NCBI GenBank assembly: GCA_032185465.1
Contig: GCA_032185465.1_4549.1
Length of the DNA stretch: 40,535 bases
Direction: 5' to 3' (one strand)
From: a phage
The position numbers were made by a program, and so were the translations under genes. Position 1 is the stretch's first letter; the number at the start of each line of letters is the position of its first letter. Below, piece after piece: positions 1,458 to 37,572 of the stretch. The notes beneath the pieces are model-generated. The model was not told the DNA's origin. It saw only the letters and a list, made by a program, of their open reading frames with translations, and made no database searches.

Positions 1458-1480
1458 TCTCCCTATAGTGATAGTTTAGT
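1458..1480 (-). promoter_or_regulatory. phage RNAP promoter (phi10-like): ACTAAACTATCACTATAGGGAGA
   Basis: Minus-strand 23-mer with T7-type CACTATAGGGAGA initiation region, directly upstream of the capsid gene. Confidence 0.85.
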
Positions 1481-2444: not shown

Positions 2445-2467
2445 AGTTCCTATAGTGATAGTTTAGG
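2445..2467 (-). promoter_or_regulatory. phage RNAP promoter (phi9-like): CCTAAACTATCACTATAGGAACT
   Basis: Consensus -17..-1 match; between portal stop and scaffold start. Confidence 0.8.
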
Positions 2468-5204: not shown

Positions 5205-5265
5205 CTTGAATCTCCTCTTTAAGTTAAGACTAAAGTCTATCTTATAGTCATATCTTAGGTCCTAA

Positions 5266-5288
5266 AGTCCCTATAGTGATAGTTTAGT
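5266..5288 (-). promoter_or_regulatory. phage RNAP promoter (phi6.5-like): ACTAAACTATCACTATAGGGACT
   Basis: Full consensus match on minus strand upstream of 4932..5204. Confidence 0.85.
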
Positions 5289-17443: not shown

Positions 17444-20125
17444 TTAAGCGAATGCAAAGTCTGAAGACAAGATGTCTTCGATATTCAGTTTACCTTTCTT
17501 CGGAAGCTCAGGCAACTTGTCGCGCTGACTTTCATGAAGCTGGTATTCAAACTGCTCGTAGAAGTCAAGCAGCACATCGTTATCGCGGTAAGTCTCTACC
17601 ATCGTCTCACGGACGCCACGGAACAGATACTCAGCGTCAGCCGGGATGGTCCCGAAGCTATCGTGAATCACTGCGAATGACATCACGCCATACTTTCGGT
17701 GAGTGTGGACTACAGTCTTGCGGAGGTGGCTACCATCTTGTGAGTGGACGAAGTTCGGGCTAATGCCTGACTCCTGCTTGTGCTTGTCCAGCTCTTTCTT
17801 CGTACCTTTGTTGACCGTAGGTTGAAGGTTGAAGGACCCTAAGAACATCAGGTTCAGACGAGTGGTATCCTTCTTGCGGTATTCCTGCCAGACCGGGAAC
17901 CCATCAGGTGTGACCCAGTGTACCGGAAGGCATGGCTTCAGGATTTCACCAGTCTTCTTGTCCTTCACTTCAGCAGCCAGCAGCTTGGCGGCACCTTGAA
18001 GCCACTTCATCGCGTCAACCGCAGCAACTACTGTCACACTCACAGCTTCCCAAATCATCTTAGCCATGAAGCGAGACGCTTGGCTTGGCTCGGTGAACAT
18101 TGCTCCCTTACCGGAGTCAATCGCTGGCATCACGGTGTCTTCGAACACTTGGTCGGCGAACCCATACTCTTTCGACCCGTAGGCCAGAGTCATGACCGAG
18201 CGCTTAGTGACCGAGCGAGACATACCGAATTGCAGCCACTGACGCGCAAGACTCTTGGTCCCAAGCTTCAGGCGTTCGCTGATTTCCCCAGTCTTCTTGT
18301 CCTCTACGGTCACCAGCTCGTCGTCCGTACCGCTCAGTAATAGCTCTTTCAACTGGTCTGACACACGGTCTGAGACTATACGGTAGATGTCCTGCACCTG
18401 ACCAGACGGCGTTAAGTTCACTGCATGTCCGCCTACGTGGTCCCTCAGCATCGCGCTGAAGTGCTGAATCCCCGAACACGAGCCGTCGAAGGCAATCGGA
18501 AGTGAGCAATTGTAGGTCAAGCCATGGTTCATCACCCCAGAATACTCGAAGCAAGCCGCTAGGAAGCAGAAGGGGCTGTCCATACTCCCCCACCACTCGA
18601 TGCTGTCCATCGGTGATTTGGCTGCTGCCAGAATGTTCTCGTGATTGTCTTCCACCCATTTGATACGCTCCTCAAAGGTTACCTTATCGACACCCGCGCA
18701 GTTGGCGGTGTGGACTTTAAGCCATTTGAAACCATCCGCCCCGATAGGCTTTCCGACCGCCAGAGTCAGTAGACCCTTCTGCATGTCGTTACCCTGAGGG
18801 TTGAACATCGGGACAGCGTAGACACGACCTCGCCAATCCATGTTGTACGGGAACCAGATGGCCTTAAACTGTGAGAACTTGTTGGCCTGTGATACGATGA
18901 AACTCATGGACAATCTGCGTGACTGTCTGGCCTTCTCGCGGCGATAGATACCAGCAGCAGCCTTCTTCCATGCCTTGAGTTCCTCCTCGGTTTCACCAGA
19001 ATAGTCCTCAGGCTTCAGCGGTTCCATCTGAGGGATGTCATCAATAGGCGTGTTGTTCAGCTTCTCGACCATGTTCACCACGTCCAGAACCTTCTTGTTA
19101 ACTTTCCAAGGTGTATTCTGAATGATGTTCACAGCGTCATAGACTTCAGGCATGTATACGTCTTCATAACGTGCTACCGCAGACTTAGACCCTAAGCGAA
19201 TCAATGGTAACGGTCTGCGACCTTTGGCCCAGTACCCACCACCTACGACACCAGTCCACGGCTTAGGTGGAACGACGCAAGGCTGGTAGACTGGAGCGAT
19301 ACCCGCAAGGCTGAATCCTCGTTGTGCCATCTTCTTGACCCAGAAGTCTGACAGGTGGACCATCTCTACGTCAGCCGCTGCATTACCAGCACCGTACCGC
19401 TTAAGCTCGACCAGTTGTGTTGACTGGATGACAATCTCGAGCATCTTGATGCCAACGTGGACAGCCTCTGTAGGACTCCAAGTCCCCCATGCATCTTCCA
19501 GTTGGCCTTGCTCCAGCATGGACGCCTCGACCGCTTGCATGTAGGCTTTCTTGTAGGATGCCCCAGCTCGCTTGTTCAGGTTCTCAGCTATCGCCTTCTT
19601 GAAGTGCTCCTTCTCTTTGTCACGGATGCGACCGAAGCGGATTTCGTCCTCAAGTGTGCGACCTATCGCGGAGGCCATCGGTGTAATCGGTATCCCTTCA
19701 GGCTTGACCAGCTTGGAGAGTATGACCTTCAGTATGATAACCGCAGCGGACTCACAGGAGATGCGCATAGAGCGGTCCTTTACGGCCTTCTCTTCAGTGC
19801 TCAACATGGTGAACGCTACGCTAGGACGCGAGGTTGACAGCTTCCCGTCTAGGCCTTCGTGCCACTCCCTGACGGCTTGCGCAATCTTAGGGACCAGAGT
19901 CTGCATCAAAGGCTTGGCGACCTGATTGTCTGCCAGTTCCCCGCGCTCAGTCTGCCGCTCAAGGTTCTTGATGAAACGTCGCTCGCCTTCTGTATATGCC
20001 TCATGCTCAAGCTGAAGCTGTTTGACTGCAAGGTCTTGCCCGTAGTGGTCAGCCAGCAGGTTAAACGGCTCAATGGCGTTCGACACATCAGAGAAGTCGT
20101 GTTTGTCAATAGAGATGACGCTCAT
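17444..20125 (-). CDS. T7-type single-subunit DNA-directed RNA polymerase, gp1-like
   Basis: 893 aa; near full-length colinearity with T7 RNAP (KARKSRR, WFPYNMDWRGRVYA, LPLAFDGSCSGIQHFSAMLRD, VTKRSVMTLAYGSKEFGF, PNFVHSQDGSHLRKTVV, HDSFGT, C-terminal FAFA). Confidence 0.98.
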   Translation of the reverse strand: MSVISIDKHDFSDVSNAIEPFNLLADHYGQDLAVKQLQLEHEAYTEGERRFIKNLERQTERGELADNQVAKPLMQTLVPKIAQAVREWHEGLDGKLSTSRPSVAFTMLSTEEKAVKDRSMRISCESAAVIILKVILSKLVKPEGIPITPMASAIGRTLEDEIRFGRIRDKEKEHFKKAIAENLNKRAGASYKKAYMQAVEASMLEQGQLEDAWGTWSPTEAVHVGIKMLEIVIQSTQLVELKRYGAGNAAADVEMVHLSDFWVKKMAQRGFSLAGIAPVYQPCVVPPKPWTGVVGGGYWAKGRRPLPLIRLGSKSAVARYEDVYMPEVYDAVNIIQNTPWKVNKKVLDVVNMVEKLNNTPIDDIPQMEPLKPEDYSGETEEELKAWKKAAAGIYRREKARQSRRLSMSFIVSQANKFSQFKAIWFPYNMDWRGRVYAVPMFNPQGNDMQKGLLTLAVGKPIGADGFKWLKVHTANCAGVDKVTFEERIKWVEDNHENILAAAKSPMDSIEWWGSMDSPFCFLAACFEYSGVMNHGLTYNCSLPIAFDGSCSGIQHFSAMLRDHVGGHAVNLTPSGQVQDIYRIVSDRVSDQLKELLLSGTDDELVTVEDKKTGEISERLKLGTKSLARQWLQFGMSRSVTKRSVMTLAYGSKEYGFADQVFEDTVMPAIDSGKGAMFTEPSQASRFMAKMIWEAVSVTVVAAVDAMKWLQGAAKLLAAEVKDKKTGEILKPCLPVHWVTPDGFPVWQEYRKKDTTRLNLMFLGSFNLQPTVNKGTKKELDKHKQESGISPNFVHSQDGSHLRKTVVHTHRKYGVMSFAVIHDSFGTIPADAEYLFRGVRETMVETYRDNDVLLDFYEQFEYQLHESQRDKLPELPKKGKLNIEDILSSDFAFA

Positions 20126-20194: not shown

Positions 20195-20217
20195 GAGTCC
20201 TATAGTGATAGTTAAGT
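20195..20217 (-). promoter_or_regulatory. phage RNAP promoter immediately upstream of the RNAP gene: ACTTAACTATCACTATAGGACTC
   Basis: Near-consensus promoter whose +1 lies about 75 nt upstream of the RNAP ATG; the leader carries a direct repeat gtctttcactt(a/g)gagtct. Confidence 0.7.
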
Positions 20218-21218: not shown

Positions 21219-21289
21219 CCCTCTCAGTTGTTAATGACTATCAGTCAGGGCCTTCAGATGTAGACTCAAAGACCCTGTAGTTAATCACT
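21219..21289 (-). repeat. 70-bp conserved leader element, copy 2 (putative RNase III hairpin upstream of second early gene)
   Basis: 69/70 identical to 22041-22110; RNA folds with stem CAGGGUCUU/AAGGCCCUG. Confidence 0.6.
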
Positions 21290-21525
21290 ATCGCTAGCAA
21301 GTATCGCGCTTCATCATCTCGTAGCACCCGTCGTAGAACGCTTGTTCGCTGCTATAAGTTATCTGGTGCATTGTTGGTTATCCTCATCGTGTAAGCTGTC
21401 GTGTATACGCTTGCGGCCCTCGTAGACCGCTTTCAGGTGACGCATAGTCGCATCGTGGTTTAACTGCCCGGTCTTGACCATAAGTCGGGCGTTGGTGACG
21501 TGGTGCTGGCATAAACCGTAAGTTA

Positions 21526-22040: not shown

Positions 22041-22110
22041 CCTCTCAGTTGTTAGTGACTATCAGTCAGGGCCTTCAGATGTAGACTCAAAGACCCTGTA
22101 GTTAATCACT
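22041..22110 (-). repeat. 70-bp conserved leader element, copy 1 (R0.3-like hairpin upstream of ocr)
   Basis: Same element as 21219-21289; the preceding GCTCTTTAACAATCTGG block (minus strand) is conserved with the T7 early leader as I recall it. Confidence 0.6.
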
Positions 22111-22226
22111 GTCGGCGCACATTAAGAGTTTATCCAGATTGTTAAAGAGCATTCCCTTCAGTCAGAGGACTTCAGGTAGACCGTTTCAGTGTTGGTCGTC
22201 ACCGTTGTTTCGTGTTGATGTGGTAC

Positions 22227-22397: not shown

Positions 22398-22554
22398 TAG
22401 GTAATCTTAAATAATATTGATTAAGCTATCGTCGGCCCCATAGTGACTAAGAGGATATAGTCTTTGACTAACATGTTTAAGACCTTAAGTCTATAGCTTT
22501 GTGTCTATTAACTGTGGGTCTATGACCGTAGGTGTTGGTGTCTTATGGTTGATA

Positions 22555-22645
22555 CTGTAGGTTAGTTAGACTGTAGGTTGTAGGACTGTAGGTTGTAGGA
22601 CTGTAGGTTGTAGGACTGTAGGTTGTAGGACTGTAGGTTGTAGGA
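22555..22645. repeat. tandem array: 5 perfect copies of 15-bp unit ctgtaggttgtagga plus one degenerate copy
   Basis: Direct reading of 22555-22645; lies just inside the left genome end, like the short repeats next to the T7 terminal repeat. Confidence 0.9.
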
Positions 22646-22649
22646 CCTA

Positions 22650-22867
22650 TGGTTATACAGATAGAGACTCAGAGACAGACCCATAGCCCCTACCTATCGT
22701 CCTGACCTCCAGCCATAGCCTAGACCTATCGTTGACCTAACGTCTTGACCATCGGTCCAACCTTATGATAGACTGGCTGTGACTGCAAGGAGTAGTAACG
22801 GGTAGGGCCTTTGGTCTTGACTTAAAGAGGGCCTATGGGGGAGACTTGAGGTTATTGAACTGTGAGA
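22650..22867 (-). repeat. candidate genome left terminus and direct terminal repeat (concatemer junction near 22867)
   Basis: Minus strand from 22867 reads TCTCACAGTTCAATAACCTCAAGTCTCCCCCATAGGCCCTCTTTAAG, matching the conserved T7/T3 left-end sequence as I recall it. Repeat length and inner boundary are not determinable here. Confidence 0.4.
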
Positions 22868-23445: not shown

Positions 23446-23468
23446 CTTCCCTATAGTGATAGTTAAGT
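23446..23468 (-). promoter_or_regulatory. phage RNAP promoter near the right genome end (phiOR-like): ACTTAACTATCACTATAGGGAAG
   Basis: Consensus match about 100 bp after the large terminase stop. Confidence 0.8.
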
Positions 23469-23562: not shown

Positions 23563-25329
23563 CTAGTGGAACGTAACGTAGGACCCTAGTCCCAGCTCGT
23601 CGTCCGTATCGTGAGTTACCCGGACCCCATTGTCCCAGAACTCAGTGTGGATGGACTCGAAGCCTTTCCGTGGGTTCTCCATCTGTTCCTCCAGCCACTC
23701 CTCAGTGACTTCACGTTCGCCTTTGTTGGCATCCTTAGCCATAGACTCAACGAAGAACTGCACACCGATAGCCAGCGCATCAAGTCGGTCATCGTGTGCC
23801 AATGCTCCACGTTCACGAGAGATACGTGTCATCTGGTAGAAGAGAGAGTAGATAGGATTACGAACACCATCCTTATCAGAGGCAGACTGGTAATCTTGGA
23901 CGATAGCAGCAGCGTTAACGATAAGTCGGTGAGACCCCATGATAGGCTCCAGAACGTCACAGATGCGGAGTTCCTTCTGACCCTTACTCTTCACTTCAGT
24001 TACAGCAGCAGGATGAATACGGGAAGCTACAGGCTTGAATAGCTCAAGGTACATACCATCACCGAAGTTACCCTCAATGACGTATTCGTTGACCTTCCAC
24101 TTACGACCAATCTTAGCCAAGGCTTCCAGCGTAGAGTCTTCATAGCCACCTCGCATACCGCCAACTTCCATAGCGAAGATGTAGCCGTTTAGCTGGTACA
24201 GTACCGCATAACCAGTTTCATCCTTACCACGACCACTAGGGTCAATGACTAGAATCTTCTGGGTGTATGAGCTGAAGGCAGAACCTACAGTCTGATACGT
24301 GTGGTATGAGTCACCCATGAGTCCAACGTTAGGAACGTCCTCACGCTTGTTCTGAGGGTTAGGAAGCCATTGGTATATCATTGGGCTAGACGCTTGGTCC
24401 AAGTCTGCTACGATAAGGTCACGGAGCTTCAGAGGGTACTTCTCGGCATCACTCAGGTTAGGGTTAAGCATGAACTGTAGAGCGAAGCCAGCTTTGCCAT
24501 AGGACAACTCACGTTCCTTCAGGTCCGTATCATCGAATCGTACTTCATCGGTAGGACGCCAGTAGAAGGACTCAGGGTCCTCTTCCAGCTCTGCCTGAAG
24601 CATAGGAGCCAGACGGTCGCCGTAAGACTGCCAGTCCTTCTTATCACGTGGATAACGAGCAGGCCAGATAGTAGTGGTGTATCCACGGCCTTCCAGCTCA
24701 CGATACAAGGTCATCTCATTCTGAGGAGTACCCAGATAGATGATTGTACCTCCCGGCTTCAGGATAGCGTCGAACTCTTTCACAAGCTCTGACAGACGGT
24801 CTCGTGCGGCCTGAGTCGCTGAGTTGTTCGGAACCTCCACGTCATCAGCAATCAGGATGTCAGCACGACTACCAGTCAGCTGACCAGTGATACCAACGGA
24901 CTTAACCGAAGGTGAGTGGTCTGGCTTAGCTGGCCCAACGTCAAAGCTGATAACAGCATCTCGCTGCCCCTGCTTAGGTTTGAGTTCCTGAAGCTGAGGC
25001 ATGAGGTCGATGATTCGCTTGATGAAGATGGAGTTCGCATCGGCTCGTTCCTTTGAGGCCGACACAATCATGAACTTCAAGTCTGGGTTGTTCCATAGCT
25101 TCCAGACCACAAAGCCACAGGTCAGAAACGACTTGCCAATACCACGGAAAGCCTGAAGGATGAAGCGGCGATTATCACCAGCAGCCAGCTTCTTACACAT
25201 ATCTATCTGGCAGCGGGTTGGAACCGGAAGGCTTAGTGCTTTCCAGAGAACGAAGATGAAGAACACGAAGTCGTCCCTCATCCTTTGGGTCATTTCTGCC
25301 TGTCTTTCAGCAGGTGTTTTCTTAGACAT
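23563..25329 (-). CDS. terminase large subunit, gp19-like
   Basis: 588 aa; near full-length colinearity with T7 gp19 ([116 protein letters not shown]). Confidence 0.98.
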
Positions 25330-25759
25330 AGAGTCCCTCCAGCATTAGGTCCCGGACAGCGATAGCCTCCTCTAGAGTGGGACGTGTTGTGCGCATATAG
25401 ACATTCCCGCGTTTAACCTGAATCCTATAACCATTCTGGTGACGGGTAACGCACTTCACTCCAGTCTTAGAGTCATAATGGCTACCAGTATTCCAAGTGT
25501 TTTCGGCGGCAGTAACGAGCCGTAAGTTACTTAAGGTATTATTGATGGGGTTCCTGTCGATGTGGTCTATTTGCATACCATGCGGTATAGGACCATTGGT
25601 TAGTTCCCATATCACACGGTGTGCCCGCTTACTGCCTAGACTTCGTGTCTGTACTATCCAATATCCCATCCGACTTAATGTCCCCACAGGCTTTCCAGTC
25701 CTAACGGAGACCAGACCGGAGGGACTCGCCGGGTCCACTTTGTAGTAATCACTTAACAC
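25322..25759 (-). CDS. HNH homing endonuclease with C-terminal AP2-like DNA-binding domain
   Basis: 145 aa; [41 protein letters not shown] then [30 protein letters not shown] start; overlaps the Rz stop and the terminase start. No T7 gene lies between 18.5 and 19. Confidence 0.85.
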
Positions 25760-26186: not shown

Positions 26187-26244
26187 AGTTGCCCTCCCGG
26201 TTTATCAGATTTCACGTAGAGTTGCCTCCACTAGTTAGTGTTAA

Positions 26245-26285
26245 CCATAAAGGCCACTACATATAGTAATGACCTTGAGTCTAAC
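26245..26285 (-). promoter_or_regulatory. conserved RNA hairpin, putative RNase III site (R18.5 position)
   Basis: Third copy of the aaaggccac...tgaccttgagtct motif, in the 100-bp gap between small terminase and Rz. Confidence 0.5.
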
Positions 26286-26873: not shown

Positions 26874-29405
26874 TCACTTAGACATAACAGCTAATGCTTC
26901 CTGCATACGCTTAATAGTACGCCGCATCAACGCAGCCTCTAATATCAGTACTTCCTCGTAACGAATACCGTAGCGGGAACCTGCTGGTGTAATCAGTTTA
27001 CGAGAGCCATCGGCATCTTCCTCGTATACATCATCCCAACTGTCGAAGCACAGGAAGCCATAGCGATGTGCATCTATACCGTGACGTTCGAAGGCCTCCT
27101 TAGCTCGCTGTGCGATGATGCCGAAGTGCCATCTAGCTGAGTCTGCACCCTTCTCCTCAATTCGGTCCAAGTACTGAAACTGCACAAAGTCAACTTCAGA
27201 CCAAGCATCCAGTAAAGCATCTGAGATATTAAGGGGCTCTGTTTTATCCCTAGCATCTGAGACAACAGTGAATGCTGCTTGAGTAAAACCGCCAGACCAT
27301 GTTCGACTTGCGGAACCTAATGCGTATGTATTAGTACTATCTGGGGTCATTGCATTAGAACCTAACTGCAAATAACCTGTGCTACTGGTAGGAAGACGCA
27401 CGTTACCGTTGGTGAGTGATACTGTCCGAGAAGTACCATCAGAAGTAAATAGGCGAACTTGAGAAGAAGTACCCCCGCCTACAGCTAATGACACAGCACC
27501 ATCCCCAAGCATTCTGTACTTATCAGCCGAGGTAAGAACGCCTGACGGAAGTGACATGGACTTAATCCACCATTCGAACCTACCGGACATACTGCCTATG
27601 TACTGTCCTAATGCAGGAGCGTGCACTACGTTGCTATTACTAGTGCCGTCAATAGTAGCTGCATCGGTAATAGTACTAGCAGAGCTGAGAAGGTCATTTC
27701 TACTACCAGGGTGCTTTACCTCTACGAAGTTACGGGTAGAGCCGGATTCGAAAGTAATAACACCTGTAGCACTGTAGCTAGGAAATACAGACGCATAGTT
27801 GTTATTAGCTGTACCTATAAAGCGCGCAATTGTAGCAGTCTGCCCTTGTCCTAAAGAGTTAGTACCATCACATCCTGACATAAGCACATTATTTATGACG
27901 TTATCAGACCCCTCTACGGTAACACCATGAGCCTGTCTAGCATCAGAAGTTGAGTAATCTACTAGCACGTCTGAGATTAAGTTCGTACTTCCTTTGCCTG
28001 CAACAACCGCTGCATACTTAGGGTTATTAGCCATCACACCCTTGATAAGGTTATTAGAAGGAGCTATTGGCCCTTCAGTGCCGTTGTAAGTTACATGCTG
28101 GCAATCTGCCCCTATAACATTACTTACTATGTTATAACTGGCTGTACCTTTCAGCTCTACGGCTCCGAAATTAGGGTAGTTCTTAGCAATGACGTTATCT
28201 ATGAGGGAGTTAACTGAGGAGTTAGCAAGTACGCATCCGGCTGCCTTATTAGTAGCATAGCCGGAGTAGCTACCTCGAATGCCTTTAATCATAAGCCCAT
28301 TAGGTTGCGCACCATTAGGGTATGCTATTAAACTGAAACCAGTACCTTTAACGTTTGAGAAGTTAACGTCACTTACAGTAACATCACTGCCACCAGCAAG
28401 AGATACCTGCTGTCCCTGAGTAGTATCAGTCGCCTTATTACTTTCTACCGTAATATTACTTAAGCGACCTGCACGTAGATTGTTAAATACTAAGTAGTTA
28501 CCTGTACTGGAACGGTGACTTAGAACGCCACTACCCCTACCGTCTAAGTTACAGTAATTACTATTAATACCAGAACTAGAGAATACACCGTCTGATGCTA
28601 CGACAGCTTTTTGAGAATTTAGTGAAGCAGCTATATTCTCCGTACTATCTGTTACACCATCCCCTTTAGCACCCCAGCCTCGAACATCACCCTCATCACG
28701 CCATCTTGCCATCTGCAATTCCGGGTAGAGTATTGCACCTTCCGGGTTTGAAATCTGACTTCTTAAAGCAGCATCACCAACACTAACCCACGCACCTAAT
28801 CCAATCCCACCGGAAGTTTCAGGAGTTGAACCAGCAGGAACGTTCTTTGGAAGCGTACCATCCCAGCGGTAATAATCACCATCCTCTTCCCATAGCAGGA
28901 CCTCGCTCCATGTTGTAACGTTGTAGCCTTTCTCGAAGGAGCGACGGGTAATATAGCCAATTAGACCAGCTTCCCTGATACTCTCAGCGATTCGGCGTGC
29001 TTCGTCCTCGCTATCCTTAGCGTTGCCAGCAGAGCTACCAGCAGCATCGGCATATTCCTTCGCTAAGTCAACCGTTTGGTCTCGACCTTCTTCTGCAATA
29101 TGGATAGCCTGAAGCTCTGAATTGGTCAGGTCACTAGCTGTCAACACTGAGCCATTCCTGAAGTCTACCACTAAGTCAGTTCCAGTCTGACGGTGAATAC
29201 GAACGATGTCGAAACCTGATTGGTCAACCAACATCTCAATCATCGTTGGGTTAAGGAATCGGTAATCTCGACCAACTTCCAGTACACGGTTCAGGGTAGG
29301 GTTAGAGCTATTCACCAGCGTAACAACAACAAACGTTCTGGCTAGGTAGTCGAACTCAATCCTGTACTGAGTGTTTCCTGAAGGGAATTGTGTAATCGTG
29401 GACAT
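26874..29405 (-). CDS. tailspike: T7 gp17-type N-terminal adaptor, central enzymatic (beta-helix-like) domain, C-terminal self-cleaving chaperone
   Basis: 843 aa; N-terminal 150 aa colinear with T7 gp17 (FDYLARTFVVVTL, VDFRNGSVLTASDL, AIHIAEEGRD). Central region is Gly/Ser/Asn/Thr-rich as in depolymerase beta-helices. C-terminus has the SDARDK auto-cleavage motif of the peptidase S74 chaperone. Confidence 0.93.
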   Translation of the reverse strand: MSTITQFPSGNTQYRIEFDYLARTFVVVTLVNSSNPTLNRVLEVGRDYRFLNPTMIEMLVDQSGFDIVRIHRQTGTDLVVDFRNGSVLTASDLTNSELQAIHIAEEGRDQTVDLAKEYADAAGSSAGNAKDSEDEARRIAESIREAGLIGYITRRSFEKGYNVTTWSEVLLWEEDGDYYRWDGTLPKNVPAGSTPETSGGIGLGAWVSVGDAALRSQISNPEGAILYPELQMARWRDEGDVRGWGAKGDGVTDSTENIAASLNSQKAVVASDGVFSSSGINSNYCNLDGRGSGVLSHRSSTGNYLVFNNLRAGRLSNITVESNKATDTTQGQQVSLAGGSDVTVSDVNFSNVKGTGFSLIAYPNGAQPNGLMIKGIRGSYSGYATNKAAGCVLANSSVNSLIDNVIAKNYPNFGAVELKGTASYNIVSNVIGADCQHVTYNGTEGPIAPSNNLIKGVMANNPKYAAVVAGKGSTNLISDVLVDYSTSDARQAHGVTVEGSDNVINNVLMSGCDGTNSLGQGQTATIARFIGTANNNYASVFPSYSATGVITFESGSTRNFVEVKHPGSRNDLLSSASTITDAATIDGTSNSNVVHAPALGQYIGSMSGRFEWWIKSMSLPSGVLTSADKYRMLGDGAVSLAVGGGTSSQVRLFTSDGTSRTVSLTNGNVRLPTSSTGYLQLGSNAMTPDSTNTYALGSASRTWSGGFTQAAFTVVSDARDKTEPLNISDALLDAWSEVDFVQFQYLDRIEEKGADSARWHFGIIAQRAKEAFERHGIDAHRYGFLCFDSWDDVYEEDADGSRKLITPAGSRYGIRYEEVLILEAALMRRTIKRMQEALAVMSK

Positions 29406-29451: not shown

Positions 29452-29474
29452 GTTTCCTATAGTGATAGTTTAGT
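29452..29474 (-). promoter_or_regulatory. phage RNAP promoter (phi17-like): ACTAAACTATCACTATAGGAAAC
   Basis: Consensus match overlapping the gp16 stop, upstream of the tailspike gene. Confidence 0.8.
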
Positions 29475-32400: not shown

Positions 32401-33357
32401 GGTCAGCGGGTCTACACCAGCACCAATCACACCAGCTGCTAACTGAGCACCAGTCCCAGCCTTGGCCTTCTCTTGGTCCAACTTCTGGTTCTCAAGCGCT
32501 AAGTTAATAAGCTCGGTCAGGTTCTGAGGGGAGCCACCAGTAATGACACCGTAATACTGAGGAAGAACCCCAGCGTTACGAATCTGGTCCAGCTCCTCGC
32601 GAGTCCACTTATGGTTGTTCCAGCGGGTCGGGTTGAACACATCGCCAATGACATCAAGTGAGTCCTCGGTCTGACCAGCGCGGATAGCCACGCCGACCAT
32701 AGAGTTCTTCACTTCAGCTTCTGTAGCCGAGCCGAAACCGAACCACGTAGAGCGATCCTCTCGTTCCTGCATGGTCTCGCCAGTAGACTTATAGAACATC
32801 TCACCGAACGATTCGTTGGGAGCTTCAGGTGCTTGACCCTCAATGTTTAGACCAGCAGCGGTCGGAAGGTTCTCACCCAGAGCTACTTTAGGTTTAGCCT
32901 TGAGTCCTTCCGTGAGTGCGTCAAATACGTTAGCGCTTACTGGTGGAGTCTTTGGGCTGATACCGTTGAGTGCTCTTGCGACTCCCTGCTGATAGACTTC
33001 AGGATTGTACCGGGAGCCTGTCTCATGGAAGCTAATAGCTTGCGCCAGAGCAGACAGGGTGTCCGGGTTCGATAGGTCGAGACTTTGGGTAGCTGGAATA
33101 CCAGTTGCAGCCACCACTGAGTCGATATAAGCCTTAGTGTCGTTCTCGTTAGGAGGTGCCCATCGGTTGATAATCTTCTCGATGGAGTCATAGCCTTGGC
33201 GACCGTAGGACAGCAGGTTTTTACCTAAAGCTCGGACGCCAGACTCTGGACTATCGAAGATAACGAAATCGCCATCATCACCTATAGCACCTTCCCATTG
33301 GTCTTTGGACTTACGGATGTTCCCGGGGTTTGAGTTCCTTACTCCACGTGTCGCCAT
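29470..33357 (-). CDS. internal virion protein D, gp16-like (ejection protein)
   Basis: 1295 aa; long colinear blocks with recalled T7 gp16 (GGSPENL, RLEARETARN, VRSPTGMQSGASGK, RREMMENPA, GTYVPHVY, EARNLFDSD, VNGDIAIMG, KILTGRARR, AMDLWR, LRPHK). N-terminal about 140 aa does not show the T7 SLT catalytic motif. Confidence 0.95.
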   Translation of the reverse strand: MATRGVRNSNPGNIRKSKDQWEGAIGDDGDFVIFDSPESGVRALGKNLLSYGRQGYDSIEKIINRWAPPNENDTKAYIDSVVAATGIPATQSLDLSNPDTLSALAQAISFHETGSRYNPEVYQQGVARALNGISPKTPPVSANVFDALTEGLKAKPKVALGENLPTAAGLNIEGQAPEAPNESFGEMFYKSTGETMQEREDRSTWFGFGSATEAEVKNSMVGVAIRAGQTEDSLDVIGDVFNPTRWNNHKWTREELDQIRNAGVLPQYYGVITGGSPQNLTELINLALENQKLDQEKAKAGTGAQLAAGVIGAGVDPLTYVPIAGQVGKGAKLVNKMFTVAAQSGALAGVSEMARTSVAGGDAHVSEAILGGALFGGGMTAIADGLGRALGRNTNEFAGPATRLEARETARNVDGQDLSRLPIQEGEQTFSHQGVKFADVPNEPGSVRLEDGSILIGENPLNPKTRQVFDEVIEPERAAAGVNLGGLTEIGLKLLRSENPEIRGVAADLVRSPTGMQSGASGKIGTTASDVFERLRAVDHRFYNDIDDAVTEALKDPYLQTAFWRDSGAFRQDIYQRVSMAIEDGSGNLKAELTPGELKVYDLLKNQFDAKREMMENPAMFGRPDAQSIFPGSRFKGTYVPHVYSKQMKELYTKELGSPEALQEAIKKSWLTSYASRPEVKKRVDEALLESDPTLTPEGLAAAVDKYANDKAYGISHTEQFERSSVMEENINGLVGLENNSFLEARNLFDSDMSIVLPNGQTFSVNNLREWDMDKIVPAYNRRVNGDIAIMAGTGKTTKDMKDLVETMMNKAGDDGKLKGEVSTLRDTLKILTGRARRDGADDAAFAAVMRTMTDLAFFAKNAYMGVQNLTEIGGMLARGNVRAMLHGVPMFRDLAFRNKKVGASEIKDLHNVLFGKELDDSIRPSKQDVIDRLRSYSDLGRGTATALGTAKYYTGELAVRSPFTKVLNGTTNYLLDAGRQGFLSDIVEHSLTGSKRKFDDRWLKTAGISDEQWKGIKSLIRESVTRGPDGKYTIKDKKAFSQDPRAMDLWRMGDTIADETLLRPHKLSNMNAKAYGPLAKTVLQFKNFVIKSINGRTMRTFYNATKNNRAMDAALSTVMSMGLAGIYYMAQAHVKAYAMQDGRDRDYLKQALDPTMIGYAALSRSSHLGGPLGVANILGGIAGYEDTKMLRSSILPRSPTEKPERAISYGAATSDPVMNVVGNFLEQVPAFGYAANVGASAYNLAGYLKADTRVNERDYMTGMYNTFRELVPNDPITQKLLLGTFEEQGIHIKD

Positions 33358-33788
33358 GTCTTTCTCCTCAAGATATTTCTAATAGAAACCGTACTCACTC
33401 CATAGCGTTCAGCCAAGAGTGAAACCTTTAGGTCGCTGGACCTTATGTCTCTAACAATGTCTTCCGTTAGTTTAGACACTCCGATTGAGCATCCGGCAGC
33501 TTGCCGACCTCTGGACACCTTATCTTTAATGTTGTCAGCTTGTGTGCCGACTTCAAGATGCTCAGGGTTTACACATGACGGGTTGTCACACTTATGGCGA
33601 ACAACATATCCATCCGGTATTGGACCATGAGCTAGCTCGTAGGCCAGCCTATGCGCTCCGTGTTTAACTCTATTTATCATAATACGACCATATCCGTTCT
33701 TCTCAACACTTCCTATGAAGCGAATACAGCCAGAGTCTTCAGCTACTGACAGTTCTGCCAGTCTCTCACTGGCTGTCCCGTTCTTCAT
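33339..33788 (-). CDS. HNH homing endonuclease between gp15 and gp16
   Basis: 149 aa; HRLAYELAHGPIPDGYVVRHKCDNPSCVNPEHLEVGTQADN; ATG 2 nt after gp15 stop; 3' end overlaps gp16 start. Same family as the intron-encoded HNH. Confidence 0.85.
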   Translation of the reverse strand: MKNGTASERLAELSVAEDSGCIRFIGSVEKNGYGRIMINRVKHGAHRLAYELAHGPIPDGYVVRHKCDNPSCVNPEHLEVGTQADNIKDKVSRGRQAAGCSIGVSKLTEDIVRDIRSSDLKVSLLAERYGVSTVSIRNILRRKTWRHVE

Positions 33789-37549: not shown

Positions 37550-37572
37550 AGTCCCTATAGTGATAGTTAAGG
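37550..37572 (-). promoter_or_regulatory. phage RNAP promoter (phi13-like): CCTTAACTATCACTATAGGGACT
   Basis: Consensus match between gp12 stop and the next gene; flanked by a perfect 12-bp inverted repeat. Confidence 0.85.

Follow-up and report, generated by a model that had tools for sequence, protein, structure and literature searches.

Promoters and RNA polymerase of the K1F type in a T7-group phage genome

Genome organization and the repeated 23-bp element

The window, that is, the whole stretch of DNA analysed here, is 40,535 bp long, compared with 39,704 bp for the genome of phage K1F (DQ111067). When half of the window (20 kb) was used as a megablast query, the best matches were K1F-like coliphages and records named as Kayfunavirus; their identity was 92-95%, and about 90% of the query was covered. 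A tblastn comparison of all K1F proteins with the window gave a gene order collinear with that of K1F, on the minus strand. Read on this strand, gene 11 came first and the capsid gene last, with the breakpoint between genes 10 and 11, and the physical genome ends would lie near 22,600 of the window. Judged from these matches, the window is a reverse-complemented and circularly permuted K1F-like (Kayfunavirus) genome. The RNA polymerase (RNAP) gene and 11 copies of a promoter element were located as follows:

17444..20125, minus strand: gene 1, single-subunit T7-like RNA polymerase, 893 aa
17786..17890, minus strand: region coding for the specificity loop, WQEYRKKDTTRLNLMFLGSFNLQPTVNKGTKKELD; window residues 746-780, equivalent to T7 residues 736-770
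20195..20217, minus strand: promoter ACTTAACTATCACTATAGGACTC; +1 at 20200, 75 nt upstream of the RNAP gene start
16875..16897, minus strand: phi1.1-like promoter CCTAAACTATCACTATAGGATTA; +1 at 16880, with an RNase III-like hairpin directly after it
15112..15134, minus strand: promoter variant CCTAAGCTATCACTATAGGACAA with G at -12, between the ligase gene and gene 1.6; +1 at 15117
13810..13832, minus strand: weaker promoter variant CCTAAACTATCACTGTAGGACAG with G at -3, upstream of gene 2.5 (SSB)
11659..11681, minus strand: weaker promoter variant GCTAAACTATCACCTTAGGGATG with changes at -4 and -3, upstream of the primase/helicase gene
5266..5288, minus strand: phi6.5-like consensus promoter ACTAAACTATCACTATAGGGACT; +1 at 5271
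2445..2467, minus strand: phi9-like consensus promoter, overlapping the end of the portal gene and upstream of the scaffold gene
1458..1480, minus strand: phi10-like consensus promoter ACTAAACTATCACTATAGGGAGA, 108 nt upstream of the major capsid gene
37550..37572, minus strand: phi13-like consensus promoter, between genes 12 and 13
29452..29474, minus strand: phi17-like consensus promoter, overlapping the end of gene 16 and upstream of tail-fibre gene 17
23446..23468, minus strand: phiOR-like consensus promoter, downstream of terminase gene 19 and near the right genome end

The 15-mer AACTATCACTATAGG was searched for on both strands of the 40,535-base window with up to two mismatches, and dinucleotide-preserving shuffles served as the control. 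Eleven matches were found, compared with a shuffle mean of 0.07 and a shuffle maximum of 1. All 11 were on the minus strand, which is the coding strand of every K1F-matching gene. A preliminary description of this DNA had listed nine copies and had left their strand unstated. Its nine intervals were all right, and each of them, read on the minus strand, spans exactly positions -17 to +6 of a T7-style 23-bp promoter. Two weaker members of the family were absent from that list, namely the copies at 13810-13832 (motif ACTGTAGG) and 11659-11681 (motif CACCTTAGG), and both variants are kept in K1F and in Citrobacter phage CR44b. The consensus (A/C)CT(A/T)AACTATCACTATAGG(G/A), which had been given for all nine, is fitted perfectly by eight copies. 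The ninth, at 15112-15134, reads CCTAAGCTATCAC..., with G in place of A at -12, and the same variant is present in K1F and CR44b.

Position by position, -16 C, -15 T, -13 A and the whole of -11 to -5 are invariant in the 11 copies. The bases at -12 to -8 are ACTAT in 10 copies and GCTAT in one, and those at -17 to -13 follow the pattern (A/C/G)CT(A/T)A. The core CACTATAGG at -7 to +2, with its G start, is exact in nine of the 11 copies, and the other two depart from it at -3, or at -4 and -3. As had been noted earlier, the -7 to +1 core is that of T7, CACTATAG, and ACTA stands at -12 to -9 where the T7 promoter (TAATACGACTCACTATAGGGAGA) has CGAC. The difference from T7 is not confined to these four positions, however, because -16 C and -15 T are invariant and unlike T7, so that -17 to -15 read (A/C/G)CT compared with TAA in T7. 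ACTAT at -12 to -8 also differs from the consensus sequences of T3, K11 and SP6 as well as that of T7, and the element is thus distinct from all four, as first proposed.

Every copy lies in an intergenic gap or overlaps a gene end, 34-258 nt upstream of the next open reading frame (ORF). Copies were found upstream of genes 1, 1.1, 1.6, 2.5, 4, 6.5, 9, 10, 13 and 17, and one downstream of gene 19. These positions match those of phi1.1, 1.6, 2.5, 4, 6.5, 9, 10, 13, 17 and OR in T7. The 23-bp architecture, the GG(G/A) start and the positions in the gene order are shared with T7, and the number of promoters differs, with 11 in the window and 17 in T7. The perfect-consensus copies precede structural genes, and the three variant copies are in the DNA-metabolism region. 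T7 has weaker class II and stronger class III promoters, and by analogy the layout of variant and perfect copies matches this pattern. The promoter of the capsid gene starts with GGGAGA, like T7 phi10.

The repeats might instead be dispersed elements of another kind, for example signals for recombination or packaging, sites of RNA processing or mobile-element remnants, and it fits this reading that several copies reach into the 3' ends of coding genes and that RNase III-like hairpins adjoin some of them. The hairpins, however, are separate elements downstream of +1. The -7 to +2 core is the T7 promoter core, all copies are co-oriented with transcription and placed upstream of genes at T7 promoter positions, and transcription in vitro from a near-identical sequence has been demonstrated, with its +1 mapped (PMC12272871). 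We therefore regard a function other than that of promoters as very improbable.

The copy directly upstream of gene 1, at 20195-20217 on the minus strand, is near-consensus. Its counterpart in K1F, with the motif at 2478-2492, and the promoter annotated at 1814-1836 in CR44b have the identical sequence. In the T7, T3 and K11 records, the interval from the preceding gene to gene 1 has no phage promoter annotated, so that the window has an extra promoter compared with these records. The location of this promoter, 75 nt before the RNAP gene, suggests that the polymerase feeds back positively on its own synthesis.

RNA polymerase and its specificity loop

The product of gene 1 carries the Pfam domains RNA_pol and RPOL_N and matched T7 RNAP structures over its full length. 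Its identity to T7 RNAP is 64%, and the earlier view of a polymerase that is T7-like overall was correct: both enzymes are single-subunit and belong to the same fold family. Compared with K1F gp1, the window RNAP is 95% identical; all 42 substitutions lie before residue 662, and the two proteins are identical from residue 662 to the C-terminus.

The specificity loop, TTRLNLMFLGSFNLQPTV, is identical to the loops of K1F and CR44b and has the K1F-type residues S754, N756 and V761 (T7 numbering). In an alignment with T7, T3, K11, SP6 and K1F, the loop differed from that of T7 by Q744T, Q754S, R756N and I761V (T7 numbering). The expectation that the loop residues should differ from T7 in step with the promoter was thereby borne out, and the loop was unlike those of all four of the T7, T3, K11 and SP6 polymerases. 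R746, N748 and Q758 of T7 are kept in the window RNAP. A 67-aa region containing the loop was at least 99% identical in 136 phage records and at least 95% identical in 205, after which there was a gap to T7 at 78%.

In T7 RNAP, base-specific hydrogen bonds are made by R746, N748, R756 and Q758 (PMC11880802). Because R756 makes a base-specific contact (PMC11880802), we infer that R756N is paired with the change from C to A at -9. The kept R746 and Q758 would go with the unchanged bases at -7 and -8. N748 is also kept, although -11 and -10 are CT in the window and GA in T7, and a rule of one residue for one base therefore fails to explain the whole element. The N-terminal AT-rich-recognition loop also differs, reading KAK--RGKRPTAF in T7 and DGKLSTSRPSVAF in K1F and the window RNAP, and this altered loop may go with the different bases at -17 to -13. 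Among PDB structures, T7 RNAP was represented and a K1F-type RNAP-promoter complex was not.

Relation to described K1F-type systems

All 11 promoters recur in K1F at corresponding sites, and the three variant copies are among them. Nine of the 11 23-mers are identical between K1F and the window, and the differences, of strain level, fall only at -17 or after +2, namely at -17 (gene 4), +6 (gene 9) and +3 to +6 (phiOR-like). The tail-fibre gene differs between the two genomes, which has no bearing on the promoters. Phage CR44b (HG818823), whose host is Citrobacter rodentium, unlike the K1F-like coliphages, has exactly 11 features of 23 bp annotated as 'predicted promoter', in matching syntenic positions. 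Of these, nine are identical to the window 23-mers, with single-base differences at -17 and +6.

The same sequence recurs more widely. The 18-mer CTWAACTATCACTATAGG was found as an exact match several times in each of about 25 T7-sized IMG/VR contigs, and eight CTWAACTATCACTATAGG repeats in another Kayfunavirus were read as promoters (PMC13298934). Purified Ro45lw RNAP transcribes in vitro from ACTTAACTATCACTATAGGGA, with G as +1 determined by deep sequencing (PMC12272871, JBC 2025). When the Ro45lw 23-mer was trimmed, only the 3' CT was removable without loss, and the 5' end was not removable (PMC12272871). Compared at promoter level, ACTTAACTATCACTATAGGGA is identical at -17 to +4 to the phiOR-like copy of the window and at -17 to +2 to the copy upstream of gene 1; Ro45lw was not among the best 60 matches of the window RNAP gene.

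The K1F specificity has also been used in engineering. Temme et al. (2012) mined RNAP loop subfamilies together with PHIRE-predicted promoters, transferred the K1F loop (Q744-I761) to T7 RNAP and exchanged -12 to -7 of the T7 promoter (PMC3458549). The resulting T7(K1F) gave 17-fold induction on its promoter and was orthogonal in a 4x4 test in vivo against T7, T3 and N4 (PMC3458549). Table 2 of PMC11880802 (NAR 2025) lists this K1F graft with 754S, 756N and 761V and with the cognate element ACTAT, and the ACTAT assignment used here for the Temme graft was taken from that table. The engineered pair therefore shares with the window ACTAT at -12 to -8 and the residues 754S, 756N and 761V. The engineered promoter keeps the T7 bases TAATA at -17 to -13, where the natural copies in the window have (A/C/G)CT(A/T)A, and Q744T is in the natural window loop but not in the table entry for the K1F graft. 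The K1F loop with M750R was reused as a sigma-like fragment (PMC4299498), and native K1F RNAP with PK1F is a routinely used expression system, orthogonal to MmP1 and VP4 (PMC12218169). The orthogonality of the Temme set was called limited, with a smallest cognate to non-cognate ratio of 8 and residual cross-activity (PMC11880802). We found no published orthogonality test of a K1F-type pair against SP6 or K11.

That residual cross-activity would fit a reading in which the window promoters are interchangeable with those of T7, the difference at -12 to -9 is neutral drift and T7 RNAP is equally active on them. The initiation core identical to that of T7, the 64% identity of the polymerases and the kept R746, N748 and Q758 point the same way. 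On the other hand, -12 to -8 are invariant in 10 of the 11 copies and -11 to -8 in all 11, which argues for selection. In addition, R756N falls at a base-contacting residue, and the T7(K1F) and T7 pairs were reported to be orthogonal in vivo (PMC3458549). Free exchange with T7 is thus highly unlikely.

The converse reading, an undescribed specificity class orthogonal to all characterised phage RNAPs, draws on an ACTAT element and a loop unlike those of T7, T3, K11 and SP6, but we give it practically no credence, with the loop identical to those of K1F and CR44b, its 67-aa region at least 99% identical in 136 deposited phage genomes, the same promoters present in K1F and annotated in CR44b, the exact string already published as a promoter (PMC12272871, PMC13298934), and the K1F loop/ACTAT pair published and in use (PMC3458549, PMC11880802, PMC12218169). 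The K1F-type promoter/polymerase pair is already known: it has a published description, is annotated in public genome records and serves as an orthogonal expression tool. The novelty implied in the preliminary description did not hold, since the K1F/Kayfunavirus promoter class had already been described.

Transcription scheme and further features of the genome

The 11 copies are almost certainly the middle and late promoters of a K1F-like phage of the T7 group (Kayfunavirus), read by its own RNAP. In the window itself, this assignment draws on the copy number compared with chance, the strand, the positions, the synteny, the loop sequence and the identity with K1F and CR44b. Near-identical parts supply the experimental side, namely transcription from the promoter with +1 at G (PMC12272871) and the test in which the K1F loop and promoter were orthogonal to T7, T3 and N4 variants (PMC3458549).

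By analogy with T7, the early region including gene 1 would be transcribed by the host RNA polymerase. The gene 1 RNAP would then bind the 23-bp promoters and start at the first G of ...TATAGG. On the model of T7 structure and genetics, the shared core CACTATAG at -7 to +1 would serve melting and initiation, and ACTAT at -12 to -8 would be read in the major groove by the beta-hairpin specificity loop, with N756 in place of R756 meeting A in place of C at -9. The invariant C-16 and T-15, together with the remodelled N-terminal AT-rich-recognition loop, probably add discrimination.

Two remaining details are put forward tentatively, and we hold them to be possible though somewhat less than even in likelihood: that the loop reads C-11 and T-10 with N748 kept, or that the gene 1 promoter gives positive feedback on RNAP. 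The reading of C-11 and T-10 may involve S754 or contacts with the opposite strand. If true, either detail would modestly refine a known system and would not amount to a novel type. As a synthetic-biology part, the K1F promoter/RNAP pair has been in the literature since 2012, and it is present in hundreds of deposited Kayfunavirus genomes; its occurrence here has little weight as a discovery. The value of the result is in annotation: the window is placed in Kayfunavirus, it receives a transcription map of 11 promoters, two more than before, and the cognate polymerase is identified.

In the early region, a scan with sigma-70 and terminator consensus sequences gave six promoter-like sites, compared with 5.7 expected in shuffles, and zero terminators. 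Since the sigma-70 scan did no better than the shuffles, it carries no information on host promoters.

Matches to the 15-mer with four mismatches (six on the minus strand and two on the plus strand) were considered as further weak promoters and rejected, because they look like background, except for the copy at 5241-5255 on the minus strand. This degenerate promoter-like copy, AGATATGACTATAAG, has four mismatches, including those at -7 and +1, and so has neither C-7 nor G+1. The phi6.5-like promoter stands 29 nt upstream of it, and what follows the degenerate copy, GACTTTAG, repeats what follows the real promoter. The copy looks like a decayed tandem duplication and is probably non-functional.

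Two pairs of direct repeats on the minus strand form stable hairpins with an internal bulge. The members of the first pair, 16826-16877 and 26233-26284, are 85% identical, with z values of -3.3 and -3.8, respectively. Those of the second, 21220-21293 and 22041-22114, are 97% identical, with z values of -1.8 and -2.0, respectively. One hairpin directly follows the phi1.1-like promoter, another precedes gene 18.5, and the other two flank gene 0.3. From their position and shape, the hairpins would be RNase III processing sites as in T7.

Near the putative genome ends, at 22554-22672, there is a tandem array of about 6-8 copies of the 15-bp unit GACTGTAGGTTGTAG (plus strand). The reverse complement of GACTGTAGGTTGTAG is a rotation of AACCTACAGTCCTAC, the genome-end repeat reported in Kayfunavirus Sparklingdew, a phage with the same promoter-repeat consensus as the window.

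Extra ORFs were found where CR44b has annotated homing endonucleases, for instance at 33339-33788, between genes 15 and 16, and at 25322-25759, ahead of the terminase gene. Directly adjoining the end of the capsid gene (306-1355) is an 87-aa ORF at 43-306 on the minus strand. In CR44b the -1 frameshift product 10B is annotated at this place, and the ORF may be the 10B extension frame.

The tail-fibre/tailspike gene 17 (26874-29405, minus strand) encodes 843 aa, and its match to the K1F endosialidase (94% identity) is limited to the first 263 residues. The remainder is unlike K1F, and the protein has the Pfam domain Tail_spike_N and a C-terminal Peptidase_S74 chaperone domain. Since the gene 17 product differs from that of K1F beyond residue 263, this phage probably has a different capsule or receptor target than K1F.
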